A stretch of 64,000 nucleotides of DNA, taken from the IMG/VR virus record IMGVR_UViG_3300028416_000010. One strand, written 5' to 3'. The translations under genes were made by a program, and so were the position numbers. Of this stretch, positions 4,274-62,586 are shown piece after piece. Positions within the stretch are counted from its first letter, which is position 1; each line of letters opens with the position of its first letter. The notes beneath the pieces were generated by a model, which searched no databases, had not been told where the DNA came from, and saw nothing but the letters and a program-made list of their open reading frames with translations. The stretch is from an uncultured virus (IMG/VR IMGVR_UViG_3300028416_000010). Taxonomy: Duplodnaviria; Heunggongvirae; Uroviricota; Caudoviricetes.

Positions 4274-5065
4274 TTAAACATATTTAACTATTTCGCAATA
4301 ACCTATTCTAAACTCACCATCCTCATCAATAAGATATTCACCACTAGGTAAAGTATCAATATAATAATATCTACCACCTGTACTTTTACCTTTAATATCA
4401 ATAGTATCTTGTTGTGTATGTCCTACAATTTGAATATAATTCTTTTTTAAATCAGATTGTTTATTTGATAATTGTAATGATTTAGGTCGAATCCATATAG
4501 GAGATTGTCCTTCATTATCACCATAACCATTTGGACTAAACCCTGTATTGTTTCTATCATAATACCCATTAAATGTAAATTGGTTTGGTTTATGATGATA
4601 TAAATCATTGATAAACTCTCCAACACTATCGTAGTCTTCATAATCGTGAGACCAATAACCTGTATCTTTTAAGAATGTTTCACTGATACCAGCGTGAGTA
4701 CATAATCTATCATCTATTTGAACACACATTTGAAAGTGTTCTTTATTTTCATCAAAAAACATTTCAAATTCATACATCATATTGGCGTTGAAACCAGATG
4801 TTGAACCTTTACCTGTAATACCTCTCATGTAGTGGATGTCGTGATTTCCAATAAGTAGATAAACTCGTTTAGTTGGGTCTAATTCTTGTAATTTCTTAAA
4901 CTCAACAATATCACGAGCGTTTCTTAATTGTACTGTACCAGGAATATCAAATGAATCAAAGTAATCAGCGATAAAGACAATGTTATCTGCGTCCTTATGT
5001 TGTTCAACAATCTCCTTCCATATGTCTCTACCATGGATGTCTCCTATGTATATATTTTTTCCCAT
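4274..5065 (-). CDS. Calcineurin-like metallophosphoesterase
   Basis: Motifs GDIHG, ADYFD, GNHD, THAG, VGHT. Confidence 0.9.
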   Translation of the reverse strand: MGKNIYIGDIHGRDIWKEIVEQHKDADNIVFIADYFDSFDIPGTVQLRNARDIVEFKKLQELDPTKRVYLLIGNHDIHYMRGITGKGSTSGFNANMMYEFEMFFDENKEHFQMCVQIDDRLCTHAGISETFLKDTGYWSHDYEDYDSVGEFINDLYHHKPNQFTFNGYYDRNNTGFSPNGYGDNEGQSPIWIRPKSLQLSNKQSDLKKNYIQIVGHTQQDTIDIKGKSTGGRYYYIDTLPSGEYLIDEDGEFRIGYCEIVKYV

Positions 5066-7207: not shown

Positions 7208-7777
7208 TTATTCTTCATCTTTAAAAAAACCATAATTACCTTTTAAGAACCCATTAATTAGATTCATTTGTATTGGTACTCGTGTCACAAACATATAGTA
7301 TTCCACCATCCTATTCACTATAAAGATAACATCTTCTTCTGTATATGTTTTCTTATCCATCTTATAAGTTTTAAACGCTTCTTTAAGTTTTTCGTTTGGT
7401 TCTGGGGGATTTTCATTTGTTTCTATGATGGTCTTAACATCTTCCTCAGATAAATCCAAAGTATCACTTGAACCTTTTTTAGCTTCAGTTAATTCTTCTT
7501 CAGATAATCTACCCACAACCTCAATTTCAGATTCAATATAACCAAATGGACCTGGTTTCATACCCAGTAACTCTTCGACATTATATTGGTATTTTCTATC
7601 AATGGCTACCCAACTATCAAAACCAACACCTTGATGATTATTGTCATAGTATCTAACATCTAATTTATCCAAATCAATCACAACAAAATACTGACAACCA
7701 TTAACCGTTTGGTTAATATCAATGATGTCACCATTCTTAATTTCTTGATAGTTTTTGTCTTTAGCTACTCTTTTCAT
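7208..7777 (-). CDS. Hypothetical phage protein (YopX-like N-terminus possible)
   Basis: 'DKNYQEIKNGDII...EIEVVG' pattern resembles the YopX C-terminal motif. Confidence 0.5.
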   Translation of the reverse strand: MKRVAKDKNYQEIKNGDIIDINQTVNGCQYFVVIDLDKLDVRYYDNNHQGVGFDSWVAIDRKYQYNVEELLGMKPGPFGYIESEIEVVGRLSEEELTEAKKGSSDTLDLSEEDVKTIIETNENPPEPNEKLKEAFKTYKMDKKTYTEEDVIFIVNRMVEYYMFVTRVPIQMNLINGFLKGNYGFFKDEE

Positions 7778-8010: not shown

Positions 8011-8418
8011 TCATAATATATGTTTTTTAGCGTTTTCTAAATAAAATATGATATTTTCTTTACCTTGTGGGTTTGCTGAATGTACATGATATTCGGGTAT
8101 TCTAACACCTTTATCTAAACAATATTCAACTAACCATTTAGCACAATCCATACCAGTTTTCTCCATACTACCAAACTTCATATTCATTTCATCTTCGGAC
8201 ATATTATCATAATCTTCAGGTTTGAATTCATAGTGAAAATCAGCCAAATCATGGTCAAATGAAATTATATCAGGTAAACCATTTTTAGTGATGTAATCTA
8301 CAAATTCACCAAAGTTCCTAACTGTATCCCAACCTTCTTCCCAATAAAGTTTGGCGTTTGGCATATAGTAACAAGCATCCTTAACTTGTCTCATATCATC
8401 TAAAAATAGTTTTTTCAT
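8011..8418 (-). CDS. Cyclic-phosphate-processing receiver-domain protein
   Basis: LFLDDMR, ISFDHDL, TGMDCAKWL, HSANPQG motifs. True start is likely MKKLFLDD at 8418; the track extension overlaps the ncRNA. Confidence 0.8.
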   Translation of the reverse strand: MKKLFLDDMRQVKDACYYMPNAKLYWEEGWDTVRNFGEFVDYITKNGLPDIISFDHDLADFHYEFKPEDYDNMSEDEMNMKFGSMEKTGMDCAKWLVEYCLDKGVRIPEYHVHSANPQGKENIIFYLENAKKHIL

Positions 8419-8434
8419 AGTCTTAATATAATTA

Positions 8435-8559
8435 AAAAATCTCAAAGGGGTCATTGTGACCTTCATCTTAAATCTTTTCTAGAATGGATTTAAAACCTGT
8501 TTCTCAGTTACCTCCATGGCTAGGAGAGATTATTTCGATATTAATCTTCCTTTGAGATT
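8435..8559 (-). ncRNA. Self-promoted structured ncRNA closed by an AATCTCAAAG/CTTTGAGATT stem
   Basis: TACATTTG promoter immediately upstream, terminal stem followed by a T-tract, internal hairpins. Confidence 0.65.
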
Positions 8560-14560: not shown

Positions 14561-15043
14561 TTAAAATAACGAATTTAATAACACTGGTTTATAGTTTAAT
14601 TGTTCACAACACACATTTATATATCTTTCATCACCAATAATATCTTCATGTAAATGTCCATGTATGTTGATTTTAAATCTCTCTAATTCAATTGGATGTA
14701 TTGGTATATGTGTTAAAACATATCCTTTCTTTTTGTCTGTTACAGCACCAGAAACAGCGTTAACGTATTGTAACATTTTTTCGTTGTGTGAAGTTTTACA
14801 CATATCATGGTTACCTAAAACAACTTTTTTATTACCCTTTAGTAGACCTAGTTTATAATATTCAGAAGATTTCTCCATTGTTAAATCCCCTAAAATCCAT
14901 GTTGTATCACCTTTATTTACTACACTATTCCATGAATCGATAATGTGTTGGTCGTGTTCCTCTACACTACCAAACCCTCTATAGATAGCCATATTTTTAT
15001 GACCTAAATGTAAATCAGATATTATATAAACTTTTCCACCCAT
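14561..15043 (-). CDS. Calcineurin-like phosphoesterase (phage RNA-repair-associated type)
   Basis: SDLHLGH, LGD, GNHD, THIP, NIHGHLH motifs. Confidence 0.9.
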   Translation of the reverse strand: MGGKVYIISDLHLGHKNMAIYRGFGSVEEHDQHIIDSWNSVVNKGDTTWILGDLTMEKSSEYYKLGLLKGNKKVVLGNHDMCKTSHNEKMLQYVNAVSGAVTDKKKGYVLTHIPIHPIELERFKINIHGHLHEDIIGDERYINVCCEQLNYKPVLLNSLF

Positions 15044-15067
15044 ATTTCAAATATAATAAAAATTATT

Positions 15068-15900
15068 TTAATCCCACCATCTTCTAATATAAAATTCTAA
15101 AAGTGTATACAATAATTTATGAGCTCTTTCTTGTTTAGCTTGAGATTCTTTAAACCATTTATCTTTATTAGATTTTATTTCATCTCGTAATTCAGCATAT
15201 TTTTCATCAATCTCATAGTTCCATTTTATTGTGTTAAAACCAGGTCTATCTGGAATTTTTTCAAATACCCACTCATCAACATCTTCACCATAAGTGTCTT
15301 TTAGTTTTTGTTGGTATTCACAGGCGTAGTCTTCATCATATACTTTATCCATTAATCTACAAATCATACGAATTCTTTGAGCGTCAATATGTGAGTTAAA
15401 ACCATAAGCTTTATCAGATTCCATGAACTTAGCTTGTTTCAATAACTGATGTTTGAATACTTCTAACGAGTATCTATAATCAAAATCAAATTGGTTCCAT
15501 ACCACAGGAATCCAATTAATAATATTTTTAATTTGTTTATATTTTCTGCGAGGCCAGTAAGTGATGTTTCTCCAAATATTTTCTAATTTATTTTTCATAA
15601 TTATTCTTTGTATAATATTGTTTTAACTAAATTTTCCATAAAAAAATATGATGGTTCATGCCCTCCAATTTCAAATTGTGTTACTTCATTTATTGGTTTG
15701 TTTTCCTTCCAATCATAAATGCAAAAAAAATAACCATCATGCTCTAAAATCCATTCATATCTTGATTTCCCATCTCCAGAATTTATTCTATTTGGCTCTC
15801 CAAAAAGCTCAACCAATCTATAATAAGAAACATTAATTGAACCTCTATGTGAAGAACCAATTAATTTATCTTTTACTTTTTCTTTATAAACTCTTTTCAT
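15068..15900 (-). CDS. Two hypothetical phage proteins (15068-15598, 15601-15900)
   Basis: Full-length ORFs; the second has a 'DGKSRYEW...IYDWK' pattern. Confidence 0.7.
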
Positions 15901-15934
15901 ATATATTAATATTTAGAGACAAATTTAATAAATT

Positions 15935-16978
15935 TCATAATAATTTATATTCTGGTTTTAATAATTTCCATATATAATTCGAATAGTTTTTTCCATCATA
16001 CATTCTGAATAATATCGGTTGTAAGTGTTTGTCTTGTTTCTTAACCCATTCAGCATAAAACTTCTTCTCTGGTAAATCACCATCATAATTTTCGTATAAC
16101 ATATCAAACAACTTACCAGCATGTTCACTTATGGACATGAAACCATACTTTAATGATTTCTCATAGTCTCTTATTTGTGGGTAAAACTCATCTGGTACAC
16201 CATCAAAAACTTCTTCTATTGATTCACCATTTGATAATATCTCCCACACTGACTTAGTAGATATCATTGATATTATTCTATGAAGTCTTATATACTCTTC
16301 ACCTTTGATTTTCATTTTGTCACCATTGGAGAATCTAACAACAAAACCTTCTTCATTATCACCAACCATATCTTTCAAAAGGGTGAAGTCTTTTATACCA
16401 TCGTATTTCTTAACAACACTTAAACTTATGTTGGATATTAAGTTTTTAAATCTTATAGGTCCGTTGTGGATGTCTATCTCCTCACCAGACTCAGTATTTA
16501 TCATTCCCAATAATATAACGTCTTCAAATGAATATTTAACCACTATATGATTTTCATTATATATTATTTCAAATAGATAAGTATAATCTTTGTGTAATTT
16601 TTGGTATTCGTATTTGGATAATAATTCTAAACCTCTAACAGATTGTTCTGAAGTGAATGAACCACGAGTGGCGAATATCCATTCACCCTTGTAGTTAAAA
16701 AGTATTCCCAATGAACCATCCATTTTATCATAAACGCCAAAGTCTGAAGTTGGTGTGTGTTTACCCTCTTCCATATTGAAGAATTTTTTGAAAGGACGTG
16801 CTACTATATTACCTTCATCATCAGTTACCAACCCTCTACATTGTAATAGAGTTTCATCCCATAAACCTTCATATTGAACCTTATCTGAATAGTTCCATAT
16901 GGTTAATGGTAATGAAGGGTGTTTTTGACTAAACAATAAACCTTCTGATTCGTATTTATGTAATAATTTTAAATCCAT
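15935..16978 (-). CDS. T4 Rnl1-like RNA ligase
   Basis: Motif I KMDGS, plus RPFKKFFN, ATRGSF, LFEII, EGFVV, KIK. Confidence 0.9.
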   Translation of the reverse strand: MDLKLLHKYESEGLLFSQKHPSLPLTIWNYSDKVQYEGLWDETLLQCRGLVTDDEGNIVARPFKKFFNMEEGKHTPTSDFGVYDKMDGSLGILFNYKGEWIFATRGSFTSEQSVRGLELLSKYEYQKLHKDYTYLFEIIYNENHIVVKYSFEDVILLGMINTESGEEIDIHNGPIRFKNLISNISLSVVKKYDGIKDFTLLKDMVGDNEEGFVVRFSNGDKMKIKGEEYIRLHRIISMISTKSVWEILSNGESIEEVFDGVPDEFYPQIRDYEKSLKYGFMSISEHAGKLFDMLYENYDGDLPEKKFYAEWVKKQDKHLQPILFRMYDGKNYSNYIWKLLKPEYKLL

Positions 16979-16992
16979 ACCACAAATATAAC

Positions 16993-17026
16993 AAAAAAAG
17001 GTTAGATAACAAATATCTAACCTCTT
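16993..17026 (-). terminator. Intrinsic terminator downstream of cassette array 1
   Basis: AGGTTAGATA-N4-TATCTAACCT hairpin with adjacent A-run (T-tract on the minus strand). Confidence 0.7.
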
Positions 17027-17135
17027 AATTTTAAATTTTCTTTGTTCTATCTGAATAATTTAAATATGTAAACTTTTGTTCACAAATCTTTACAATTTTT
17101 TGATTTAGCATCCTATAACTATTTAATAATTAATA

Positions 17136-17166
17136 ACTTACAAAAAGGTGTTGATATATACTAGTT
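17136..17166 (+). other. attI-like primary recombination site, copy 1
   Basis: ACTTACAAAAAGGTGTTGATATATACTAGTT is identical to 62273-62303; identity ends exactly at the GTT of the first cassette. Confidence 0.75.
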
Positions 17167-17207
17167 GTAGTGCATTAAAACGACACCACAACAATATATA
17201 AAATCAA

Positions 17208-17366
17208 TTAATTATTACTATTTGCTTTTAAGAACATTATTGCAGTTTTGTAACTTTCAATCAATCTAAAGTAAGAGGCTTCTACAAAATCTTCTCTTGC
17301 TTTACTATGTTGTTTCTTTGCTTTTTTTAGTTGGTATTCCATCAACTTTATTGTTATCCAATCCAT
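17208..17366 (-). CDS. 52-aa ORF wholly inside an attC loop
   Basis: MDWITIKLMEYQLKK...FLKANSNN, between the arms of the first attC. Confidence 0.65.
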   Translation of the reverse strand: MDWITIKLMEYQLKKAKKQHSKAREDFVEASYFRLIESYKTAIMFLKANSNN

Positions 17367-17390
17367 AATTAACTGTTTTTATATTTAACG

Positions 17391-17675
17391 TTAGCAGCCA
17401 TTTAAGACCGCATCTACCAACGCTTGACGAGTATCAAAACAATCTTCGTCTTTTACCCAAAATTTGCAACCCATTTCACCACTTGTATGGTAAACTTCCA
17501 ATTCAATGTCGGTGTGTTCATATAGGTAATGTTTCTGACCTCTAATAGCTTCTACTTTGCCATTCATAATGTGTCGCCCATTTAAAAACCACACCTCTTG
17601 TCCGAAATTAAAACGGCTGCTAACAGCAGCTATGCCTAATTGCGGAGCTTCGTTGTAATCTGATACTTTTTCCAT
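17391..17675 (-). CDS. Cassette protein (starts in attC loop, stop in crossover GTTA)
   Basis: PQLGIAAVSS is the translated attC arm. Confidence 0.75.
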   Translation of the reverse strand: MEKVSDYNEAPQLGIAAVSSRFNFGQEVWFLNGRHIMNGKVEAIRGQKHYLYEHTDIELEVYHTSGEMGCKFWVKDEDCFDTRQALVDAVLNGC

Positions 17676-17744
17676 TTTATTATATTTTGTTGTTAATTAA
17701 AAATTTCGTTCTTTAAATCCGCAACTAAGCATAGCTGCAAACCG

Positions 17745-18032
17745 TTATGGTGCATACAGCTTCAACCTCTTAACTTGGTCAATCCCTTTTGCATTACAAT
17801 ACAAGGCAAAATTTCCTAAGTATTTATAACTTTCACTACTTATATCCATCGAACTACGTACATCGCCTAAGTTATCCCAGTGCTTTGCTACGTTCTGCAA
17901 TCCTAAAAACATACTTGCGTTCTTTGCAATCAAATAATTTTGCCTTTTTTCGCTACTAAGCAAGAAAGTACGCACCATAACAATGCGTATAATCCATTGC
18001 TTAAATTCTACTAATTTGTTAAGTATCTTCAT
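17745..18032 (-). CDS. Cassette protein (starts in attC loop, stop in crossover GTTA)
   Basis: QWIIRIVMVR is the translated attC arm. Confidence 0.7.
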   Translation of the reverse strand: MKILNKLVEFKQWIIRIVMVRTFLLSSEKRQNYLIAKNASMFLGLQNVAKHWDNLGDVRSSMDISSESYKYLGNFALYCNAKGIDQVKRLKLYAP

Positions 18033-18113
18033 TTTATAATCTTTTAGTTGTTATCCAAAGTCTGTGCTGTTAAACGCAACGTATCATACGCTCAACGTTA
18101 TAAAACATAAAAA

Positions 18114-18389
18114 TTATTTACACGGTTCGTTTTTTCTGCCACTACCTGTTTCAATCAAGTATGCCTTTTCGATTAACTTCAAATAAGATACTGGTTTGCC
18201 TCTATCAGTGTCACAAATAACTTTCTGTCTTTCTTCATTATAGTATCCTTCAGAAGTTAATCGAAATTCCTCACCATCGGGCATTCTAACTAAATCACCT
18301 TTTCTCCACGCAGATAATACTGGGTTATGTTCTATCCTATCCATAATTTTTACGTTTTTATAACAACAAATATAAGCAATTATTCTCAC
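18114..18389 (-). CDS. Cassette protein (start uncertain, possibly 18344)
   Basis: ORF in the cassette body; SH3-like 'KGDLVR' stretch. Confidence 0.65.
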   Translation of the reverse strand: MRIIAYICCYKNVKIMDRIEHNPVLSAWRKGDLVRMPDGEEFRLTSEGYYNEERQKVICDTDRGKPVSYLKLIEKAYLIETGSGRKNEPCK

Positions 18390-18473
18390 AATTCCAAATA
18401 AATGTTGTTTATTAATATTAAGTTCCGTTCTTCTAATTAAGTTTTCGTTAATAACTGCTTATATTTGCAACCG

Positions 18474-18614
18474 TTAGCAAACATCGTGTTTTAAGTTACA
18501 TTTGCTACATATCCAATACTCTTTTTTATCTGTTTCTTTTAGTTTGCCTAATCGGTACATATCAGATACTTTTTTTCTTTTATTGCACCAATCGCATTTC
18601 TTAGTCTTTGTCAT
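18474..18614 (-). CDS. 46-aa zinc-finger-like cassette protein
   Basis: CDWC...CSKC; stop in crossover GTTA. Confidence 0.65.
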   Translation of the reverse strand: MTKTKKCDWCNKRKKVSDMYRLGKLKETDKKEYWICSKCNLKHDVC

Positions 18615-18669
18615 AGTCACGTTTGCTAACATTATTTAAAAATCATTAAAACGCTTTTTACATTTAGCG

Positions 18670-18894
18670 TTAGCGGAAATGCCTTTTAAGAGCTTCATTC
18701 GTCTTTTCGGCTTTCTTGGAAAAATCATGGTCATATAATGCTTTATCTGTGCAATCGGCACATAATCCGTCATACATATCTCTATGAACTGTCCCGTCTT
18801 TTTTTAAGCAACCACTACATACTAAGGCACTATCCGCTAACAAGCGGTTAGCGTCATTGCCGTTTTCGTGGTCAATTGAAGTTTTGTGTTCCAT
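18670..18894 (-). CDS. Zinc-finger-like cassette protein (starts in attC loop)
   Basis: CSGC...CADC; NDANRLLAD is the translated attC arm. Confidence 0.7.
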   Translation of the reverse strand: MEHKTSIDHENGNDANRLLADSALVCSGCLKKDGTVHRDMYDGLCADCTDKALYDHDFSKKAEKTNEALKRHFR

Positions 18895-18971
18895 ATCAAA
18901 TTTATTTTAAAGTTAAAGTTTCGTGTTCCAAAGTCGGCAACGAACGCCAACCCTCAACCGTTATAAACAAA

Positions 18972-19157
18972 TTATACATATCCCGTTAATTCTCTAATGG
19001 CTTCATCTCTTTTTTTCTTTTCAGAAAAAGGTATTACATCGCCATCTAAATAAATACAATAAAAACCTTGTTCCTCGCCACTTTTCACTATTTTAACATT
19101 TGCCACATTAACATAAATAACACCGTCAATAGTTCCGCTTATCATTCTAAAATTCAT
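18972..19157 (-). CDS. Cassette protein
   Basis: 61-aa ORF filling the cassette body. Confidence 0.7.
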   Translation of the reverse strand: MNFRMISGTIDGVIYVNVANVKIVKSGEEQGFYCIYLDGDVIPFSEKKKRDEAIRELTGYV

Positions 19158-19301
19158 ATTTTCATCAGTTTATAACATTATTTAAAAATCATTAAAACGC
19201 TTTTTACACTCAACGTTATGTGTAAGTGTTCTGTTCATCGTTCTAATCAACATTTCGGTTGAAAATTTTAAAATAAAAATTCTACACACAAATTTAACAA
19301 A

Positions 19302-19823
19302 TTAATTTGAATAATCAAAATCATATTTTACTATAAGGTTTTTTGGTATAATCCCAAGATACGCAACAGAACCCCATATATCTAAACTTTCAATTATCTT
19401 TTCACTATCGGTTTCCGCTTTGTTCCAACCATATTTATTTAATATGTAATCATCATCCCAAGTTAATTTATCTAAATTTAATTTAGTAACATCAATCCAT
19501 AATCTCACTATTGGTTTGGTTTCATAGTTTTCTTCATTCTCATAATATTCATCCATCACATCCATTAGTGATTGTGGTAAATTCGCTTTATATAATGATT
19601 GTGACGTAGTTAAAAAAATACCTTCTGAAACATCTCTATAATAAGAATTTGGGTTTTTTCGTGGTATTAAACCCTCAATTTTAATATCATCTAAGTAATC
19701 AGTTAATGTATAATGAAAAAGATATTTCCCATCAATTAAATAGTTTTTAACATTATCATTTACATAGTTTTCATTCAAAAACTCTCGTATTGTGGTTTTA
19801 ATAAATTGTCTCAAATCTTTCAT
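19302..19823 (-). CDS. Cassette protein, possible ADP-ribosyltransferase/Tpt1-like fold
   Basis: 'LFHYT...IKIEGLIP...GIFLT' pattern; 'IKTTIREFLNE' leader; upstream TATTTATA motif. Confidence 0.45.
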   Translation of the reverse strand: MKDLRQFIKTTIREFLNENYVNDNVKNYLIDGKYLFHYTLTDYLDDIKIEGLIPRKNPNSYYRDVSEGIFLTTSQSLYKANLPQSLMDVMDEYYENEENYETKPIVRLWIDVTKLNLDKLTWDDDYILNKYGWNKAETDSEKIIESLDIWGSVAYLGIIPKNLIVKYDFDYSN

Positions 19824-20069
19824 CTTTTATTTTATATATAAATATTAACAATTAAAATTTCCACCGTTCTTTTTCTTTTAAAACTTTTGTTCAGTTCTCC
19901 GAATAAACATACTACCTTAATTAACCACACCTACACATAACAAGGTGTATATGTAATGTGAGGTTCAGTGTTATGTTAAAGTTCATCATTCTAATCAACA
20001 TTTGTGGTTAAGTGGAGTTTAGTGTTTCAAATCTCACACTACATATACACCCAACCGTTGTAAGTAATA

Positions 20070-20228
20070 TTATTTTTTAGGGTTTCTTGTTTTCCAAAAC
20101 TCTATTGCTTCTCTATGTGTAAAAAACTCGTGAAGTTCATAGAACCTTTCTCCGTTTTCTACATAAGCAAAATCCCATACTTCCCACTTATTTGTTTCTT
20201 TGTTTTTTACTGGTCTTTGACAATCCAT
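20070..20228 (-). CDS. 52-aa cassette protein
   Basis: MDCQRPVKNKETNKWEVWDF...RNPKK fills the cassette body. Confidence 0.65.
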   Translation of the reverse strand: MDCQRPVKNKETNKWEVWDFAYVENGERFYELHEFFTHREAIEFWKTRNPKK

Positions 20229-20350
20229 AATCTATTCATTTAGTTAAAAAATAATACATACTCACAACAACGTGTAAAATTCATTAAAACGAAATCTTAC
20301 ACAAACCGTTATAGCCCATTGTAGAAAACGGCAGACAAAACATTAAAAAT

Positions 20351-20959
20351 ATGGAGTTAGAAAAAAAACTCGACAAAGTATTAAATATTCTATATGACGA
20401 ATCCTTGTTGACGTTAAAAAGAATACCAACAACAGACATTGCTGTATTCGGAAAACGTAGATATGGACTTGATATGTCTGATACTGAAATATTATTAATA
20501 ATGGATACCTTACAAGATGAAGGATATGTTATTATGAATAAAGGCGATTTTTCAGGTTCAAATATGAAAATGCCAACATATTCCTTAACAAGTAAGGGGA
20601 TACGACTTAAACAAAATGGTGGTTTTGCATTTAAAAGACATGTTGAATGGTGGACAAATTTCTTAATTATTTCCGCTTCCATAGTGACTATTATTGTTGG
20701 TTTAGCGACAAGTATTGATTTTTATTTTAAATATTTATCCTCTCCAAGCGAAATAAATAATAGCACTGAAAACACTCAGACAATAACAGAACCAACCCCA
20801 AAAGCCGATTATAATATTGAATTTAGCGATACAGAAAAGACTAACAATGATAAAAATGGCAATACCAATACCAATCAAAACAAGATGGATACTATTACCG
20901 ACATTGACACCATTACTGACTCTATCAAGAAAACGGCTATCAGACCGACTAATAAATGA
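20351..20959 (+). CDS. Canonically oriented cassette gene: wHTH-like N-terminus, one TM, Thr/Asn-rich tail
   Basis: Only + strand gene in the array; followed by the attC at 21035-21165. Confidence 0.8.
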   Translation: MELEKKLDKVLNILYDESLLTLKRIPTTDIAVFGKRRYGLDMSDTEILLIMDTLQDEGYVIMNKGDFSGSNMKMPTYSLTSKGIRLKQNGGFAFKRHVEWWTNFLIISASIVTIIVGLATSIDFYFKYLSSPSEINNSTENTQTITEPTPKADYNIEFSDTEKTNNDKNGNTNTNQNKMDTITDIDTITDSIKKTAIRPTNK

Positions 20960-21171
20960 TTTTTTTCTTTTAAATAATGACATATTTTTAATTTTAACTA
21001 ATTGATTAATAATACAAAATACAAGAACAACGGACTATAACAGCGTATATGAGCAATAGCGGTTGTAGTGGTAAATTGAAGTTTAGTGTTTCTAATAAAG
21101 TTCGGTACTATCCGAAAGTTTATGTTTCTAAATCCGCTACTGCTCATATACGCAAAACGTTAGGCTTAATA

Positions 21172-21705
21172 CTACCACTCACTCCAATCAGCTATTGTTT
21201 TTTTGCCTTTAGAAATCCTTATAATGTTAGGCTCTAAAGTCTTTAAGGTTTCTTCTGTATCTGCATCTACATCTAGCCTGTATACTTCGTCACTATCACC
21301 ACCAATAGAAGCGTAAACCCTTTCTCCATCTTCGGTTATTCCTGCAAAACCAAAGCTATATTTGTAGTAACTGCTAAACTTTAGTTTAACATTACCATAC
21401 TTTTCGTAAATCTGTTCTTTTGTCATTTTATTGTCTTTTTTTGTTAATGTTCCGTACTAAGCCTAACACTGTACATAAGGCATTAAAACGCCCTCATGTA
21501 CTCAACGTTATGTGTAATGCTAGGGTTTTTCTAACCTCTTGTTTCTATTATATAGATTTTTCTTAATTGTGTTACTATCTTCCGTACCATTAGCTGATAT
21601 ATGATTGGATATTAAAATACCTTCCATTCTTTTAATTTGGTCAACTTCGTTTGGTATATGACCAATCCGCAGGTTATCCCATTTTTCAAGTTTACACTCT
21701 TTCAT
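21172..21705 (-). CDS. Two single-gene cassette proteins (21172-21426, 21520-21705)
   Basis: Each ORF fills one cassette body. Confidence 0.7.
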
Positions 21706-21843
21706 TTCAATTTATTTTTATCGTTAACAATCCGCACTACACACAATAACGTATATACCTCATTTTCGTACCTCAAACGGTGCATATACAAACCGTTATG
21801 GTGCAATTAAAAAAGCACATAACACAGAATATAAATAATAAAA

Positions 21844-22083
21844 TTAACTAATCACTTTTTTATCAGTCCAATTTTTTTCGCCTCTAAGAATACTTAACAT
21901 ATTCAACATATCGTCTTTATCATAAGATTCGTGGCAACCTTGTATATTAAATAAATAATCTTGCGACCACCAAGTCCAAAACAAAAAACGCTTTCGTTTC
22001 TCTATGATGTATTTTTTATTATTTCCGCCCACTGCATTATTAATAGATTCTATCAATCTATATTTTTGATTATCTTTCATCAT
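21844..22083 (-). CDS. 79-aa ORF wholly inside an attC loop
   Basis: Bounded by arms AATATAAATAATAAAATTAAC and GTTAATTTTACTATTCATATATT. Confidence 0.7.
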   Translation of the reverse strand: MMKDNQKYRLIESINNAVGGNNKKYIIEKRKRFLFWTWWSQDYLFNIQGCHESYDKDDMLNMLSILRGEKNWTDKKVIS

Positions 22084-22167
22084 CCGTTAATTTTACTATT
22101 CATATATTTTACGTTATAACCAATACTACATTATACGAACTAATTAACATTTTGTCACAAAAACTTT

Positions 22168-22467
22168 TTAATCAACGTGTTCACATCTTTCAAAAGTAAT
22201 TTCATTAAAATCTAAATTAATTTGGCATTTATGTAATTTCCATATATGGTTATTATTACTTGGAATTATGAAACCACTATTAAATAATTCATATTTTCCA
22301 TCAAACTTATTACCATCAACAACAATAAATTTAAATGGTTTCCATTTAGATTCACCAGTAAATTGTTTTGTCACATCCTCAATTATTAAAGTTGGGTTTT
22401 CATTAAATTGTATTTGGATAATAATATCACCCAAAATTAATTTACCGTTTTTTAATTCATTTATCAT
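22168..22467 (-). CDS. Cassette protein
   Basis: 99-aa ORF in the cassette body. Confidence 0.7.
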   Translation of the reverse strand: MINELKNGKLILGDIIIQIQFNENPTLIIEDVTKQFTGESKWKPFKFIVVDGNKFDGKYELFNSGFIIPSNNNHIWKLHKCQINLDFNEITFERCEHVD

Positions 22468-22839
22468 AATCTCTAATTTTATTTATAATTATTATTAAAA
22501 GTTTTTGTTTAGTATTTCAATCAAGTTTTTTCTTAAATTCACCGTACTGGTTATAACACCATATATAGTTTATAAGCCTGTTTAACATACTTTTTTAATT
22601 AGTAAGTTTTTCGTATGGCTTACAAAACCATATACTCAACGTTATACACAATATTTTTTAACAACCCATTAATTTGAGTTATCATTCTGGTTTTTAACCT
22701 CATCATCAATCATTTTATTAAGGTTTTCTTTGACCCAATCCATATTATCTGTGGAAACATTCATTTGACTTAGTTGGTTAAGTAATTCTGTTTTACTTTT
22801 TTCCATTTCTTCTTTAGTTTGTTTTTTCTTTTCCATATT

Positions 22840-23244
22840 CTATTTTATTTTTATTTCTTTACTTTTGGTATAATTTAATTTTTCACCTATTTTTATTAAT
22901 TCACCAATAATCATTGAATTTAATTTCCCATTTAACATCGCAAACGGTTCGTCACTTTTCTTAAAATTAAAACCATTATATTTAATAATTTTAGATGTTA
23001 AATGGTATATTTCATGAGTTAATGTATCAACACAAACACCGTCATCGGTTATTTTTACTAAGACATATACCAATTTTTCTTTTGGAATAAACTCACCAAT
23101 AACAATCCCATCAAAATCAATTTCACTTATTTTATAAAGTTTTTTCTTATTATGTTTTTTCTTTATCTTGTTGATTGGCTTACTTAAATCATAATCAAAA
23201 TAAATTTTAACTTTAATATCATATAATGGTATTTCTATTTTCAT
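22840..23244 (-). CDS. HExxH metallopeptidase-like cassette protein
   Basis: LTHEIYH plus a downstream E. The cassette also carries a 55-aa ORF (22669-22836) and a TATATTTG motif. Confidence 0.55.
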   Translation of the reverse strand: MKIEIPLYDIKVKIYFDYDLSKPINKIKKKHNKKKLYKISEIDFDGIVIGEFIPKEKLVYVLVKITDDGVCVDTLTHEIYHLTSKIIKYNGFNFKKSDEPFAMLNGKLNSMIIGELIKIGEKLNYTKSKEIKIK

Positions 23245-23347
23245 TTACAAATATACTAATTTATTTTTAATTTATCAATCCATTTCACAAAAATACAGTG
23301 TATAACAAATGATAAACAACATTAAAACGATTGTTTATCATCAGACG

Positions 23348-23590
23348 TTATGAGCAATGAAATTTATCATTAACCCAAATTTTAAACTTTTCTTTAAGTT
23401 CTTCCTTGCATTGCTCAGGTTGGTAATACCCGCTTATCTCACCATTAAACGTCTCATCACTTTCTAACCATCCATTATAAAAAGTTTCTGCGAGTAATGC
23501 CATTAATTTCACTTCACTGCTCATAACATCAGATATATGTAATTTTTTATCTGTGTTATTATCTTCTGTACTTTTTTTATTATTATCCAT
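23348..23590 (-). CDS. Cassette protein (starts in attC loop, stop in crossover GTTA)
   Basis: KKLHISDVMS is the translated attC arm. Confidence 0.75.
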   Translation of the reverse strand: MDNNKKSTEDNNTDKKLHISDVMSSEVKLMALLAETFYNGWLESDETFNGEISGYYQPEQCKEELKEKFKIWVNDKFHCS

Positions 23591-23674
23591 ATTATTTACG
23601 TTTTGTGTTTTGGTTTAAGAAAAACTACATATATCTGTAGCCGTTGTATGCAATTAAAAAATACATACAACACA

Positions 23675-23818
23675 TTATATAGTTAATTTTTTAACTTCCC
23701 TTTCTACTACTTTTATAGCTTCAATAACTTTATTATCTATAACTTTAGGTAAGTTACCTCTATCAAATAGCCACTCTCTATGTGCTTTTAATATAACCAT
23801 TGCTTCATATAATCTCAT
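23675..23818 (-). CDS. 47-aa ORF inside an attC loop
   Basis: MRLYEAMVILKAHREW...VKKLTI, ending in the left arm. Confidence 0.65.
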   Translation of the reverse strand: MRLYEAMVILKAHREWLFDRGNLPKVIDNKVIEAIKVVEREVKKLTI

Positions 23819-24147
23819 AATTTATATATTTTAATACGTTAAAAATCTAACCATATAACCCTACGTTATAGGTAATGCTCTTTAATTATATCCATAGCAC
23901 TCCATATTTTTTTTACTTCTGGTAATTCTCTGAACTCTTCAACTGTAAGCTCTTCTTTATCTACCATCAACTGCATCATACTCCAACTTGTATTCACCTG
24001 CAAAGTGTGGCTCAATGGGTATGCGTATAACAGTACCTAAAAAACAGTTGGTGTTATCTCCTACTTTAAGTTCGTTCCTTTCTTCTTGCTTTGTCATATC
24101 ATAAAATTTAGTGGTTGTAAATCCAACCGTTTCTTAGCTGCATCCCG

Positions 24148-24303
24148 TTAGCTGCAATAAAAAATAAGAGCTTCAAAATCACTAAAATTTATTACACCTT
24201 GCTTAACCCATCGGTACAGCATTTTTAGTTTTTCTTTTTCACTTTTCAATTCTTGTAATGTATCTACTTTTTCTTGGTATTTATATTCGTCTAGTTGTTT
24301 CAT
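24148..24303 (-). CDS. 51-aa cassette protein
   Basis: MKQLDEY...ALIFYCS; stop in crossover GTTA. Confidence 0.65.
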   Translation of the reverse strand: MKQLDEYKYQEKVDTLQELKSEKEKLKMLYRWVKQGVINFSDFEALIFYCS

Positions 24304-24436
24304 AATCTTATTTTTTAAAGTTCACTTCGTCAGCTAACAACGTGTATATTGCATAGCCTATCGGCATACGCACCATACACAATGCGTTATGTGTAAGTGT
24401 TCTATTCATAATTCTAATCAACATTTCGTTTGAAAA

Positions 24437-24847
24437 TTAAAAACCATAATGAAACCATTTATCATCATTTTGTAATTGCTCTTTTAATTGCTTGTTTATT
24501 TTCCATACTATATTTTGAGCAATAACAGAAGTTATCCCTTTAACATCAAAATCATAAGCAATTTGACCAATTGAATATACAAACATTCTCAATAATTCTC
24601 TTGGTATGTCAAATGTTATATCCATATCATTTGTGTAATTTTTACTAGAAAAGTTTATTTCATTACTTATTGGTCGCATAACTAAGTGATGTAAGTCTTC
24701 AAACCAATCCTTACTCAATCTTTCACAACCTTTTCTCATCATTGATTCAACCCAAGTACTCGATGAATTCCATTCTTCTCTTGTTAGAGAGATTTTAACT
24801 ACTTTTTCAAAGTAACTAATATTTGCAATTTTTTGTTTATAATCCAT
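24437..24847 (-). CDS. Cassette protein
   Basis: 136-aa ORF in a cassette whose attC is partly deleted. Confidence 0.7.
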   Translation of the reverse strand: MDYKQKIANISYFEKVVKISLTREEWNSSSTWVESMMRKGCERLSKDWFEDLHHLVMRPISNEINFSSKNYTNDMDITFDIPRELLRMFVYSIGQIAYDFDVKGITSVIAQNIVWKINKQLKEQLQNDDKWFHYGF

Positions 24848-24927
24848 ATGTTTTTATTTAATTTTTTTGTTCAGTTATCCGAATTAAGTTTCCACCTTCT
24901 CATACACCCATACGTTATGTGCAATAA

Positions 24928-25248
24928 TTAGCAAAACTGATAGTTTAATTCTGGCTGTAATTCCTTTATCATAATTCTCTCATTTGCCCTCGCTATTTCT
25001 TTAGTATCAAACTCCATTATAAGCACCTTGCTAAATTGTTTTGGTTTATGTTGCAACATTCGATGATACAAACTACCTGTATATCCTATGTACTTTATTT
25101 CATCATCATATACCAAAGCGTAGTTAAAATATCTCTCTCCACACTTTTTCAATTTTGTGGTTATTTGCTTTTTGCTAATTACAGTACATAACAAAGGCTC
25201 ATATTGCATAACCTTTTTTATCTCTTTTATTGATTTTTCTGGAGTCAT
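24928..25248 (-). CDS. GIY-YIG nuclease-domain cassette protein (starts in attC loop)
   Basis: FNY...KYIGYT...RMLQH...E...PELN. Confidence 0.75.
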   Translation of the reverse strand: MTPEKSIKEIKKVMQYEPLLCTVISKKQITTKLKKCGERYFNYALVYDDEIKYIGYTGSLYHRMLQHKPKQFSKVLIMEFDTKEIARANERIMIKELQPELNYQFC

Positions 25249-25678
25249 ATAGTTTTGTATTTCAATTAAATATTGTATGTAATTACCAGTTACGCAACAT
25301 AGCCAAACCGTTATCTGTAAGTGTTACGTTCATCATTCTAATTAACATTTCGGTTGGAAATTTTTAAAAAGTTATTTTTTTATAATCTCTAAATATGGCA
25401 TTGGTTTTTTCATTTTCGTAAATTTATATTAATTTAATTCATAACCATCAACAAAATAAAACTTTGGATACTTAATCGTTTTTCCATCAAAATCAAACCA
25501 ATACCACCCATCATATTCTTTTTGTGTTAAGTAACTCCAACCAGTCTTTAAATAACTTGTTTGGTGAGTTAAAATAAAGGTAACCCATTTTTGTTTATTA
25601 TTAACGTTTTCTTTTGTTTTTTTCTCGTTTGGGAATACTAACCCCATTATTTTTTTACTAACTTTACCCATCTTTATT

Positions 25679-26821
25679 TTAATTTAAAATTACATCAATA
25701 ATTTTATTCGTTATATTTCTAAAATACTCTTCATCATCACCCACTTTAGTTACCATAGCTGCGGTACCAATTCTTATACCTGATGTCTCCCAAACACCTC
25801 TAGGGTCATCTGGTATACTATTTTTATTTACAACTATATTATATTCTGATTCCAATTTGTCAGCAACTTCAGCACCTGACTTATCACCAGTATGAATTAA
25901 TATAATATGTGAATCAGTACCATCTGTTGTGATTTTAATTTCGTTTTCTTTAAGAATATCACACATATATTTCGACATCTTTATCACATTTTGTGAATAT
26001 TGAACAAAATCTGATTGTAGAGCCTCATAATAAGCCTGTGTTTTACCCGCAACTTGATTCATTAATGGTCCACCTTGTGTACCTGGAAAAACACCACTAT
26101 TTATTTTTTTACTATATTCCTCGTTATTCCAAAGAATCATACCACCTCTAGCACCTCTTAATGTTTTGTGTGTGGTAGATGTTACAAAATCAGCATAAGG
26201 TAAAGGTGAATCATATACTTTACCAGCAATTAACCCACTATAATGAGCCATATCAACCAATAGATAAGCTCCAACTGAATCAGCTATTTCTCTAAACCTT
26301 TTAAAATCTATTTGTCTTGGATAGGCAGAAGCTCCAGCAATAATTAATTTAGGTTTAACTTCTTTTGCCTTTTCCTCTATTTGATTATAATCCAACCAAC
26401 CATTAGCATCCACACCATAAAAATGGTTATCAAACCATTTACCACTGATATTGGCTGGTGAACCATGTGATAAATGTCCTCCTGATGATAAATCCATCCC
26501 CAAAATAACATCATTTGGCTTTAAGAATGCTTTAAAGATTGCTAGATTGGCATTAGCACCACTATGTGGTTGTATATTGGCGAAGTTACAATTATATAAT
26601 TTAGTAACTAACTCAATCCCATAATTCTCCAGTTCATCATAATGTTCACAACCATTATAATATCTTTTATTTGGATAACCTTCAGCGTATTTGTTAGTAA
26701 ACTCTGAACCACAATAATTCATAACTTCTCTGGATGTGAAGTTTTCTGAAGCTATAAAGTTATGCTCCATTTCTTGTCTACCCATTTCTTTGGATAGGAT
26801 TTGTCTTAATTTATTTTCCAT
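25679..26821 (-). CDS. glyA: Serine hydroxymethyltransferase
   Basis: IASEN, KYAEGYP, QPHSG, GGHLSHG, TTHKTLRG, PGTQGGP, SGIRIGT. Confidence 0.97.
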   Translation of the reverse strand: MENKLRQILSKEMGRQEMEHNFIASENFTSREVMNYCGSEFTNKYAEGYPNKRYYNGCEHYDELENYGIELVTKLYNCNFANIQPHSGANANLAIFKAFLKPNDVILGMDLSSGGHLSHGSPANISGKWFDNHFYGVDANGWLDYNQIEEKAKEVKPKLIIAGASAYPRQIDFKRFREIADSVGAYLLVDMAHYSGLIAGKVYDSPLPYADFVTSTTHKTLRGARGGMILWNNEEYSKKINSGVFPGTQGGPLMNQVAGKTQAYYEALQSDFVQYSQNVIKMSKYMCDILKENEIKITTDGTDSHIILIHTGDKSGAEVADKLESEYNIVVNKNSIPDDPRGVWETSGIRIGTAAMVTKVGDDEEYFRNITNKIIDVILN

Positions 26822-26835
26822 TTTTATTTTTTAAT

Positions 26836-26983
26836 TTGACCGACTTCAGGATTCGAACCTGTTTGTTCCATATTAGTTGACTACGTTAAGGTTATTTCCC
26901 TACTCGAGTTATTATTCCCATCAACATATTATTAGGAATAATCCTTGCGTCCAAGGACCGTGTATACCATCCACCAAGTCGGT
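26836..26983 (-). ncRNA. tRNA-like RNA with ~85-nt structured insertion in the anticodon arm
   Basis: Acceptor CCGACTT/AAGTCGG, D-arm GTG-GATGGTATA-CAC, T-arm CAGG-TTCGAAT-CCTG; insert hairpins TCCTTG/CAAGGA and TTATTCC/GGAATAA. Confidence 0.7.
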
Positions 26984-26988
26984 TATTC

Positions 26989-29514
26989 CTACATTGTCAC
27001 AAGTATATCTGTAAAATCTGTATCTTCATCTAATGTCTCAATAGGTACAGGACTCTTATCGATTATATTTTCTAATATTTGTTGTACCCATGGACTAAAC
27101 CCACACATATCATCTTTATACCCATAACCATTTTTGTTACACTTATACCAACTACCACTATGTCCTTCAAAATAGTAATAGTCTTCATCCTCTTCGACAC
27201 CAACAATACCACTATTCATTTTCCAACTATCACCGCTTGTATAACCACCTCTCCAACCAGCAAATACTTTAAAGTAAGGTTCTGATTCGTTTATTTTTAA
27301 TACTACCCATCGTTCTGGTATTTCTGTAACATTCATAATTATTCTATTTTAAATATTGTTTAACATAATCCCAAAGTGACTCAAATGAATAACAAATCGG
27401 TTCACCATTTTCATCAAAAGCTCCATATACACTTTTTGGGTTTAACATTTCTTCTTTGTTTTCAAAAGATTTATATTCACTCCAGTCTTTAGTTCCCCAA
27501 TCATTTTCGTAAATAAACCATTCAATCCATTCAACACCTTCTTCAGTAAAGAGAGTTTTTATTGTTGATTGGAACATTTTATAAATTGTAGTACATAAAT
27601 CATATTTACCTTCAAAGAAATCAAAACCCATATCATTTAATTCTGATGTTTGTCTTTGAAATTTTTGATAAGTCATTAATATTTCTAAGAAGTTTTTATA
27701 TTCCATTTTTAAAGTTCCCATATTGATTTGCGTTTATTTTTCTTTTTAAAACTAAACAATAATGCTATTTTTTGAATTAATCTTTTCATAAAACCTGTTT
27801 CTTTATTTATAATTTTTAAGAAACTCTTTGGGTATATCTTTGCTTAACCCTTTCATTATATTCTCTTTAATATATTTAATGTCTTCCTCGTCTTTAATAT
27901 CCTTAATTATTTCTCTAAACCTAATTAAGAAATCAACATTCTCGCTTTCACCATAGACATTAACTATTCTATCATGTAACCATTGTAAGTGTTCTGATTT
28001 TGTCATATCTTTTTATTTTAACTAAAATCTGTACTTGTTGATACTCTAAGGCCATCTATTTCTCTATCCACATATGATGAAGGGTTTGACATCCAAGAAT
28101 GATTTTCTCTCATATATTCTAAGTCTGCCACTCTACCATCCCATTCCAATGCCATCTGAATAAATTCTTCTGGATGCAGTTCTTCGCCATATTCATTAAC
28201 AACTCTTCTACTCCTAATAAAGTTTAATAACTCTTCTTTATTTGTGTAGTATTGGTTGTCGTTAAAGTTCCAACAAAACTTCCAACCGCTTGACCTCTTG
28301 CCTAAGTGGATTGAGTTATTACCAATGAATCTATCCCAAGGTGATAACCTATCCCACCCATCTTCATACATTCTAAAGTCGTCTTCACAAAGACCTGGAT
28401 TAGAAACATCCATAGATTTAATCTCTTCAATAAGTCTTTTTCTCTTTTCTTCTAGGTCTTCAACTTTTGGTATTGAATAGTAATTTGTTCCCATTTTTAT
28501 TAAAGTTTATTCTTTAACTGTAACAATTTCTTCCTCTTCATTATAGTTTTTTTGTCTGATAATATCGGTTTCAAATTGAAATTGGTCAGACAACACTTCT
28601 TGGCTACCATTTAAAGTAAAATCATACATATTCTCATTTAAATATTGGATAACTTCTTCTTCTGATAACCCTTGTAATTCAGTATAATCCTCGGGGTTTA
28701 ACTCAATTGTTCCGTATACCTCGTATACGTTGTAACTTTTTGCTAATCTAATTTTCATAATTTATTGTAATTTAAATATTAATATACTTCTGTAGTTTTT
28801 TTTGTGTTAAAACCACCATTCTTTCTATATGCCTCATCTACTTCACCAGATTCTAACCAAGCATTCTCTCCTTTTGTTTCTGAATCAAAAAACACTTTAT
28901 ATTCTTCTGGTTCTAATAATCTTGCTAAAGCATCTGCAACACCTTCATCTAATTCATCGTAGATATCATAGATATCAGCTTCATATGTGATGGTGTCTAA
29001 ATAATTTAAGAAATCTTCCTCCGTCTCACCTTCAAATGGATATGAGATACTTCTAAAATCTTTTGGATTTAATTCAACAACCTCTGATGATTTTGAGATT
29101 GTATAAGTTTTACATCTTCTTAATTGGTACATAATTTTATATTTTTATTATGTTTATTTTATTCATATATTGTTCAATCTTTTCTTTGTTGACCTCCTTT
29201 ATGTTATATCTATCTATTACTCTATTGGCAAACATAATATAATCTTTTTCAGTGTATTTAGATACAACATCCATACTATCAGTTGTTACCCAGCTATAAA
29301 CTTTCTTATATGTATATTTTGGTTTCATTCCAAAAAGCTTTATCCCAGGGAATACCATAAATTTCCTATATAATTCACATATAGTAATATCGTTACCAAA
29401 CCCACCTAATCTAAATTTGGTTCTAATGTCTCTACCTAATAAATCTTTAAATTCAAAATCCATAATTATATTTTTTAAATTAATACAATAATACTTATTT
29501 TTTTTTAATTTCAC
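26989..29514 (-). CDS. Run of hypothetical phage proteins (26989-27336, 27344-27721, 27803-28006, 28018-28494, 28507-28758, 28779-29132, 29137-29514)
   Basis: Contiguous minus-strand ORFs; 28507 and 28779 share an 'ELNP.D(Y/F)' motif (paralogues). Confidence 0.7.
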
Positions 29515-62272: not shown

Positions 62273-62303
62273 ACTTACAAAAAGGTGTTGATATATACTA
62301 GTT
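62273..62303 (+). other. attI-like primary recombination site, copy 2
   Basis: 31/31 identity to 17136-17166; precedes the first cassette of array 2. Confidence 0.75.
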
Positions 62304-62517: not shown

Positions 62518-62586
62518 CTTTATGTCTTTTAATTAAGTTCAGTAAAAGCAACGGTTCATACACAAAACGTTATAAAACATTAAACT

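Follow-up and report, generated by a model that had tools for sequence, protein, structure and literature searches.

What has assembled the row of small genes between positions 17164 and 25310 of a 64-kb stretch of DNA from an uncultured virus (IMG/VR record IMGVR_UViG_3300028416_000010)? We refer to the whole 64,000 nucleotides as the window. A first-pass annotation of the window had noticed about 21 imperfect hairpins running from AAC to GTT and proposed an integron-like array of cassettes that insert as circles by crossover at G/TT (the slash marks the crossover point). We find it likely that the region 17136-25410 belongs to an integron-like gene-capture platform shared among phages, and is its cassette array. 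Although built like an integron, it is not a classical one.

The region contains 22 GTT boundaries, which delimit 21 units. In an exact-match scan, 14 perfect 9-mers of the type GTTNNNNNN follow in succession between 17390 and 23519, and each is then followed by its reverse complement. In the rest of the 64 kb, pairs of this type are scattered and consist of A and T only. If gaps are allowed, the pairing extends to about 14 nucleotides (nt) with one conserved mismatch (A.C if the + strand is read, G.T if the - strand is). We call the near box a' (GTTA-N6-AT) and the far box a (AC-N6-TAAC). Imperfect hairpins of 38-143 nt, which we call X, separate each a box from the next a' box; when folded, the - strand of X is usually slightly more stable.

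Of the 126 N6 positions in the a' boxes, 100 are complementary to the a box with which the same unit ends. If a' and a boxes are paired at random, the figure is 47 ± 6, and 0 of 10,000 permutations reached 100. Across the adjacent hairpin, in contrast, the a and a' boxes are complementary at a mean of 2.25 of 6 positions, which is the chance level. This bears out the observation that the bases after each GTT pair with the far box of the following unit and not with their own hairpin, and all eight of the example pairs that had been quoted are found where they were claimed to be. The end signature is clear in about 17 of the 21 units. Units 12 and 13 pair only with one indel, unit 18 has a weak a box, and a clear one is missing from unit 20.

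These ends are compatible with two models, in which X belongs to the body on one side of it or to the body on the other side. A methyltransferase cassette that is shared by two unrelated viral contigs (L056 395-1310 and L078 6005-5091; 95.9% identity over 916 base pairs, or bp) distinguishes between them. The match begins at (C)GTTA and ends past X at ...CCGTTA, and the flanks are unrelated. It follows that the unit runs from TTA and a' through the body and a to X and G, and that each open reading frame (ORF) stays with its own start. These limits rule out Model B, in which crossover is on the other side of the hairpin and the ORFs are canonical but split from their starts. The mobile unit, then, is TTA-N6-AT, the body, AC-N6-TAAC, an imperfect hairpin X, and a final G.

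The hairpins have a short and a long form. The short X, in units 5, 7, 9, 11, and 15, has a 12-bp stem and an invariant loop, CATTAAAACG. It lies 0-3 nt after TAAC and 5-6 nt (CTCAAC, CAAACC) before GTTA, so the unpaired spacer is one-sided. The long X is about 115 nt, and its arms carry a GTATAT/ATATAC box. All units but unit 10 (20 of the 21) have their ORFs on the - strand, opposite to the polarity of the sites, and the array ORFs run in the same direction as the recombinase gene (see below) and the rest of the phage. In classical integron cassettes, the ORF comes first and is followed by attC, read R'' to R', and the cargo is read from a promoter of the platform. Because the ORF precedes attC in that order, the ORFs of the array are inverted relative to classical cassettes. 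The boundary TAA inside the GTTA box is the stop codon in 7 of 21 units, and 6-7 of the long hairpins have a loop ATG with which the ORF begins, 17-22 codons ahead of the a box. Units 1, 13, and 17 have bodies of just 18-29 nt, and their ORFs are located in the X part.

The same sites are found in other phages. A pattern scan of viral contigs found many loci with arrays of the same signature (for instance, 9 pairs in L042 and 8 pairs in L089), and a regular-expression search identified 108 distinct short sites. We aligned 100 of these, from the window, 78 other loci, and the Polaribacter phage P12002L. We left out four sites that were unlike the family (L050, L061, L082, and L153) and four of irregular length (L058:6754, L079:5346, L131, and L142). 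The AAC, the loop, and the GTT are invariant by construction of the search, which did not fix the stem. All 12 stem pairs change on both sides among the 100 sites, and 82.8% of the cells are paired, versus 54.7% after shuffling (0 of 500 shuffles were as high) and 31-45% if the arms are slid. A model of the short site, R1, has nine matches in the window at E ≤ 0.1; all are on the + strand, and five are training sites.

At the DNA level, only the hairpins of the window match the other loci, with up to 96-98% identity, while the genes do not match. When we compared the region to 50,697 phage records with megablast, the sole match was the hairpin of unit 4 (18338-18444), which is 87% identical over 107 bp to the 462-kb uncultured phage LR756500. 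The family also includes a site that had already been named as an attC, P12002L_attC1 (NC_028924 30003-30070), which adjoins DNA methyltransferase cargo. Most of the cargo in the window is not recognizable: 22 of 25 array ORFs have no match in PHROGs, so the annotation's view of them as "mostly phage-type genes" is not supported, and a Pfam search of the cargo was nearly blank too. In the arrays of other phages, the cargo that can be recognized most often encodes DNA methyltransferases (N6_N4, C5, and MT-A70 types), often with several per array (L044, L051, L055, L056, L057, L062, L078, L088, L095, L040, L058, L042, and L102), and this fits an anti-restriction role. The arrays can be a large part of a genome. 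In G002, a complete 38.5-kb myovirus with terminal repeats, they take up about a quarter of the length, and this genome lacks a tyrosine recombinase.

The site family is associated with a family of tyrosine recombinases. Two records with arrays have PF00589 hits: L166, in which a 270-amino-acid (aa) ORF (P0001) adjoins the array, and L115, which has an internally deleted copy of 199 aa. With tblastn, we found more copies beside arrays, including intact ones (L073 and L107), a truncated one (L109), and one that is cut by the end of the contig (L032). A scan with an alignment of the recombinase found 205 viral relatives. We then ran R1 on the loci of the best 80 of these 205, which were chosen by recombinase homology alone, and found 118 matches at E ≤ 0.001, distributed over 46 of these loci. 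Without exception, the 118 matches lie upstream of the recombinase gene, on the strand opposite to it, which is also the layout of the window.

The window itself has a remnant of this gene. At 17034-17111, on the - strand, 26 codons are followed by a stop codon; by tblastn, 17034-17105 matches the N-terminus of the recombinase of L115 with 67% identity across 24 aa, and the DNA at 17044-17166 is 72.8% identical to L115 6975-7097. The array is thus an orphan. Beside this stub is an attI-like site at 17136-17164 (+ strand), with the crossover G at 17164; on the sense strand, it reads AAC followed by TAGTATATAT. A similar motif, AAC followed by TA-TATATAT (a TATATAT-rich run), lies 40-60 nt before the start of the recombinase in 7 of 8 listed loci, and in L268, L269, and L286 as well. 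We consider this conserved motif to be a putative attI-like site. Exact-match scans for the attI-like string of the window, and for the window's own contig in viral and metagenome collections, gave no matches.

The recombinase differs from IntI. The best NCBIfam model for P0001 is XerA_Arch (NF040815), at 164.9 bits with a cut-off of 220. The phage proteins score 165-201 bits against this model, and two of eight bacterial relatives exceed the cut-off. Against the integron-integrase model (TIGR02249, with a cut-off of 265 bits), P0001 scores 148.4 bits in two stretches; the intact relatives score 136-215 bits, below the cut-off and always in two stretches. P0001 aligns to chain 2a3v of IntI at residues 19-184 and 213-268, with 28 residues where IntI has 76 (about 48 are missing), while it aligns to chain 4a8e of XerA in one continuous stretch. 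The catalytic R-K-H-R-H-Y motifs are visible in our alignment (A2). An enzyme of about 270 aa that resembles XerA and lacks the IntI-specific insert implies that this is not a classical integron. The integron-like reading of the annotation is supported, with the correction that the enzyme is XerA-like; the window has no intact recombinase gene and has instead the 26-codon stub of this family.

Relatives of the recombinase are also present in bacterial genomes, mostly of Bacteroidota (193 relatives with 40-57% identity). Among the loci of the best 80 of these 193, 16 have at least three signature pairs. Two of the bacterial relatives, L213 and L221, have ORFs in the classical orientation. In 853 kb around bacterial homologs of the recombinase, R1 has six weak matches, all with the same polarity, so the short phage site is nearly absent there and a host origin of this exact site family is unsupported. 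As a separate observation, five loci on Bacteroidota chromosomes (L220, L236, L231, L211, and L254) have arrays with the same signature downstream of the recombinase homolog, with ORFs in the same direction, a layout that is unlike both the phage and the classical arrangements.

Near-identical phages elsewhere differ in the order of their cassettes. In L268, L269, and L286, the recombinase and the DNA downstream of it are 97-99.6% identical and the cassettes are 99.9-100% identical, while the order and number of cassettes differ. For instance, L286 ends with S, P to Q, T, and U before attI, and L268 has (S), P to Q, R, and S before attI. All three ends of internal blocks in these loci are within 3 nt of the AA/C point that the site model predicts. 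Contigs from four seawater runs point the same way. Among the 19 distinct break places listed (60 more lie beyond these), six are within 2 nt of a cassette boundary (17392, 17743, 18096, 18366, 23642, and 23672), as compared to about 0.5 expected. Two other breaks, at 17136 and 17176, arise because the second array of the window has a paralogous attI-like site. Five "skip" joints in the contigs have sides of only 21-24 nt and are unreliable. Because assemblies can mis-join at repeats, we take the reordering and the contig breaks as supportive and not as proof. Together with the exact GTTA-to-GTTA limits of the shared cassette, the fixed polarity of the recombinase family to the sites, and the gene stub and attI-like site at the end of the array, they favor an integron-like array with circular cassettes.

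Several results weigh against this interpretation. About 4 of the 21 units do not have a clean signature. Mis-joins of metagenomic reads at repeats could account for part of the differences in order among L268, L269, and L286, as well as for some of the contig breaks. The contigs of the four runs do not show any circular junction or back-joint, but contigs cannot show rare forms. Also, there is no intact recombinase within the 64-kb window, so the statement that this phage uses cassette recombination is not supported by the DNA at hand. More broadly, PF00589 is absent from five of five array-bearing contigs and from 30 of 32 in another set, and none of the eight array-bearing viral records that are rated as at least 90% complete has any tyrosine recombinase. 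This implies that most arrays are orphans, with activity that is in trans or in the past. Decay of the recombinase gene is frequent: besides the window's stub, L115 7027-7626 has an internal deletion of about 65 residues, L109 4333-5043 is truncated at the C-terminus before the catalytic tyrosine, and L085 6391-6441 is a stub of 17 aa.

Might the region instead be a classical cluster of attC sites lacking an integron integrase (CALIN), with true attC sites that were acquired from, and are serviced by, the IntI of a host? The GTTA/TAAC core, the two-box hairpin layout, and the circular-cassette signature would all fit. However, the unpaired spacer is one-sided here (1 nt versus 5 nt), unlike in attC, the sites are in fixed polarity to a different recombinase family without the IntI insert, and the stub at the end of the array belongs to that XerA-like family and not to IntI. 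One member of the site family bears directly on this issue: P12002L_attC1 was predicted to be an attC by HattCI, but it was missed by the Infernal attC model, and it was the only one of six tested sites that did not yield recombinants with IntI1 (PMC9892861). We consider a classical CALIN to be unlikely. Alternatively, the hairpins could be like the PeSLs of T4-type phages: regulatory promoter or terminator cassettes, with genes that are shuffled by ordinary homologous recombination between repeated hairpins and without a dedicated recombinase. As with PeSLs, the hairpins in the window are intergenic and upstream of each ORF, some have start signals, and they are far more conserved between phages than the genes are; furthermore, most array-bearing phages lack the recombinase, and mini-circles of PeSLs are documented (PMC2839356). 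But the crossovers of PeSLs vary within the repeat (PMC2839356), while the limits here are fixed at G/TT. Homologous exchange cannot generate complementary ends that are specific to each cassette, nor does it explain why a recombinase family is strictly associated with the sites. PeSL-like shuffling is very improbable.

Finally, the hairpins could act in RNA (in mRNA stability, processing, or translational control) and the units could be immobile. In favor of this, the bases at the conserved mismatch form A.C in the + strand but a G.U wobble in the strand that is transcribed, and the - strand folds are slightly more stable. Contigs from a metatranscriptome library cover most of the array, but carry-over of DNA is possible, so this does not prove transcription. 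What RNA structure would not explain is that the same cassettes, with exact limits, are found in varying surroundings and in varying order, or that a recombinase and an attI-like site accompany the arrays; also, the hairpins do not match any Rfam family. We give this explanation hardly any credence. We also rejected two other mechanisms. An IS200/IS605-like HUH mechanism would require an HUH gene, and none is associated with the arrays, while the tyrosine recombinase is. Circularization by the adjacent RNA ligase was rejected because the ligase is not linked to arrays in relatives, while the tyrosine recombinase is linked: an array is present in just one (L032) of the 39 loci that have a relative of the ligase, and there it is located elsewhere. 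All nine loci with relatives of the serine hydroxymethyltransferase (SHMT) on the other side of the array lack an array.

How would an integron-like array of this kind grow? In a free circular cassette, the two ends and X would fold into one long hairpin, presumably as single-stranded DNA. The XerA-like tyrosine recombinase would cut at G/TT, at the foot of this hairpin, and would join the cut hairpin to the attI-like site just upstream of its own gene. Insertion would leave the cassette's a' box at the near end and its a box and hairpin at the far end. Each gene has a hairpin upstream of it, and in its long form this hairpin supplies the start codon and the first 17-22 codons. Orphan arrays would outlast the decay of the recombinase gene, and the array in the window could change only if the enzyme were encoded outside the window in the same genome or were supplied by the host or by a phage infecting the same cell. 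The N6 boxes that flank a hairpin are unpaired in the array and would be perfectly paired in the circle, and we speculate that this could favor capture over loss.

Taking all of these parts together, we lean slightly towards the following picture. Marine and freshwater phages may run their own gene-capture system, distinct from integrons, in which a minimal recombinase of the XerA-like kind takes up circles with one gene each and adds them just upstream of its own gene. The one-sided hairpin sites may double as portable gene-start modules, with a promoter region, an ATG, and a leader peptide. Cassettes that encode anti-restriction methyltransferases and ORFans would pass between unrelated phages, orphan arrays would be serviced in trans by co-infecting phages or by host homologs, and a perfect 14-bp foot that exists only in the circle would bias the system to capture.

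It's useful to compare this system to known ones. Like integrons and CALINs, it has a row of mostly single-gene units that each end in an imperfect AAC...GTT hairpin with crossover at G/TT; each cassette begins with bases that can pair with the far box of the site belonging to it; and a tyrosine recombinase gene and a simple, putative attI-like site lie at one end, with the position and polarity of intI. Unlike in integrons, the recombinase is about 270 aa, matches XerA best, has about 48 fewer residues at the IntI insert, and scores below the IntI cut-off. The R boxes pair over about 14 nt, one conserved mismatch included, unpaired spacer bases are on one side only, and the loop of the short site is invariant. 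Also, the ORFs run opposite to the site, which contains their starts and leaders, and the platform is phage-borne. Xer-type systems, such as XerA of archaea, the dif modules of Acinetobacter plasmids, and the integration of CTX phage via a folded single strand, resemble it in that the enzyme is small, Xer-like, and free of an accessory domain, and in that the substrate may be a folded single strand. They have one dif-like site per element or inverted pairs of sites, and they lack an array to which units are added at an attI-like site next to the gene for the recombinase.

Clusters of attC sites in virulent phages were reported by Qi et al. 2023 (PMC9892861), with as few as two predicted sites (three in TJE1), and were read as classical attC. 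The link to our family is P12002L_attC1 from the Polaribacter phage, which was predicted by HattCI only, and methyltransferase cargo like that beside it recurs in other arrays. Unlike our system, no phage recombinase, attI-like site, or array of 20 cassettes is described in the accessible part of that paper. The first-pass annotation was not aware of any characterized phage system of this scale. Our full-text search of the literature found no phage cassette system with an Xer-type enzyme and none of this scale, although small phage attC clusters had already been published (PMC9892861), with one site of this family among them. The PeSLs of T4-type phages (PMC2839356) are alike in that they bring ORFans into plastic regions of large phages, each behind a conserved stem-loop with expression signals, and small circles were proposed as their vehicles. 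In the accessible part of that account, they differ in being driven by homology at variable points, without cassette-specific complementary ends, and no recombinase is identified.

The textbook example of a device that stockpiles and shuffles genes is the integron, which is defined by IntI with its special domain. The phage system would achieve this with a simpler enzyme and with sites of a different build, in phage genomes of the virulent type, and as G002 illustrates, cassettes can make up as much as a quarter of a small phage genome. If the system is active, it would explain how phages exchange ORFans and anti-defense genes, such as orphan methyltransferases, without sequence homology, and tools that are keyed to IntI and canonical attC would miss a large class of gene-capture platforms. 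It would also make for a tractable test of the minimal needs of a tyrosine recombinase on folded DNA.

We now describe the individual units of the array. The ORFs are on the - strand unless stated otherwise; scores out of 12 are from the analysis of the boundaries and box complementarity, and R1 scores are for the short-site model. Unit 1 (17164-17389) has a tiny body, with only the loop CATTAAAACG between a' and a; its ORF (17208-17366, 52 aa) is in the hairpin part, and R1 matches at 17152-17204 (23.6 bits). Unit 2 (17390-17743) encodes 94 aa (17391-17675), its a box ends at 17624, and its 119-nt hairpin contains the ATG and gives 17 leader codons (11/12). In unit 3 (17744-18096; ORF 17745-18032, 95 aa), the a box ends at 17981 and the 115-nt hairpin contains the ATG (11/12). 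Unit 4 (18097-18472; ORF 18114-18389, 91 aa) has an a box that ends at 18364 and a hairpin of 108 nt. Unit 5 (18473-18668) encodes a cysteine-rich protein of 52 aa (18474-18632) and has a short 38-nt hairpin (11/12; R1 53.6 bits). The 118-nt hairpin of unit 6 (18669-18959; ORF 18670-18894, 74 aa) contains the ATG, and unit 7 (18960-19214; ORF 18972-19157, 61 aa) has a short 38-nt hairpin (R1 56.4 bits).

Unit 8 (19215-20056; ORF 19302-19823, 173 aa) begins with a 55-nt element that we discuss below and has a hairpin of 115 nt (11/12). The leader or promoter region of this 173-aa gene (19824-19932) is 70-85% identical to sequences in L071, L077, and L042, where it precedes other genes, and in two runs there are contigs that continue into another gene from exactly 19827 on. 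Unit 9 (20057-20307; ORF 20070-20228, 52 aa) has a short 39-nt hairpin (R1 57.9 bits). Unit 10 (20308-21158) has the sole + strand ORF (20351-20959, 202 aa, with a weak winged-helix match) and a hairpin of 117 nt. Unit 11 (21159-21506; ORF 21172-21426, 84 aa) has a short 39-nt hairpin (11/12; R1 63.5 bits). A homolog of this ORF (49% aa identity) is found at L102 9540-9880, where it is flanked by a direct repeat, ATGCTTACAAG, and not by hairpin sites. Unit 12 (21507-21794; ORF 21520-21705, 61 aa) is the first of the two whose a box needs an indel, and R1 gives 19.9 bits at 21737-21806. Unit 13 (21795-22112) has a body of 29 nt, with its ORF (21844-22083, 79 aa) in the hairpin part, and unit 14 (22113-22640; ORF 22168-22467, 99 aa) has a hairpin of 83 nt (11/12).

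Unit 15 (22641-23346) contains two ORFs (22669-22836 and 22840-23244) and a short 40-nt hairpin (R1 72.1 bits) that is 93-96% identical to sites in L071, L032, and L052. Unit 16 (23347-23642; ORF 23348-23590, 80 aa) has a 115-nt hairpin that contains the ATG (11/12). Unit 17 (23643-23864) has a body of 29 nt and an ORF (23675-23818, 47 aa) in the hairpin part. Unit 18 (23865-24146), with its weak a box (8/12), has ORFs at 23866-24015 and 23957-24097. Unit 19 (24147-24385; ORF 24148-24303, 51 aa) has a 47-nt hairpin (R1 22.7 bits). Unit 20 (24386-24913), which also begins with the 55-nt element, has an ORF (24437-24847, 136 aa) that is 40% identical at the aa level to a cassette ORF in L085. 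Unit 21 (24914-25309) encodes 106 aa (24928-25248, with a weak GIY-YIG or endonuclease match), and its 117-nt hairpin contains the ATG. The distal end of the array (25310-25410, + strand) has the last GTTA box and then a third copy of the 55-nt element; one contig diverges at 25409. This element of about 55 nt lies directly after the GTTA box at 19215-19270, 24386-24440, and 25310-25365, with a partial copy at about 19965-20010. It is thus located at the 3' end of the cassette on the coding strand and may be a terminator or a 3' module. A search of 15000-28000 with Rfam gave three chance-level matches and no family, and a tRNA search found none.

A second, smaller array lies at 62273-63170. 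It has three units on the - strand, with the G at 62301 and boundaries at 62569, 62952, and 63157, and is not accompanied by a recombinase stub. It is headed by the same attI-like 29-mer as the main array. Exact pairs are found at 62301/62452 and 62569/62896, and R1 matches at 62894-62963 (30.8 bits).

The window has a G+C content of 23-31%, and 131 of its 148 non-overlapping ORFs of at least 45 aa are on the - strand. Pfam identifies a T4 Rnl1-type RNA ligase (15938-16978) and the SHMT (25682-26821) as well as a sigma factor, GP88, and Kyano_Gp96. Relatives of the RNA ligase are on IMG/VR contigs of up to 254 kb, and the stretch is present in seawater metagenomes; we read the window as part of a large marine phage. 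The hosts of array-bearing phages are probably Bacteroidota, given the Polaribacter phage P12002L and the distribution of recombinase homologs. Outside of the array, the window encodes a cREC_REC domain (cyclic-phosphate processing receiver; 8014-8466), a weak match to a TacA1-like antitoxin (7211-7777), and two metallophosphoesterases (4277-5065 and 14564-15043), which are possible counter-defense genes. Lastly, a 601-aa ORF at 44788-46590 contains Hint and LAGLIDADG homing-endonuclease domains: it is an intein inside a phage gene.

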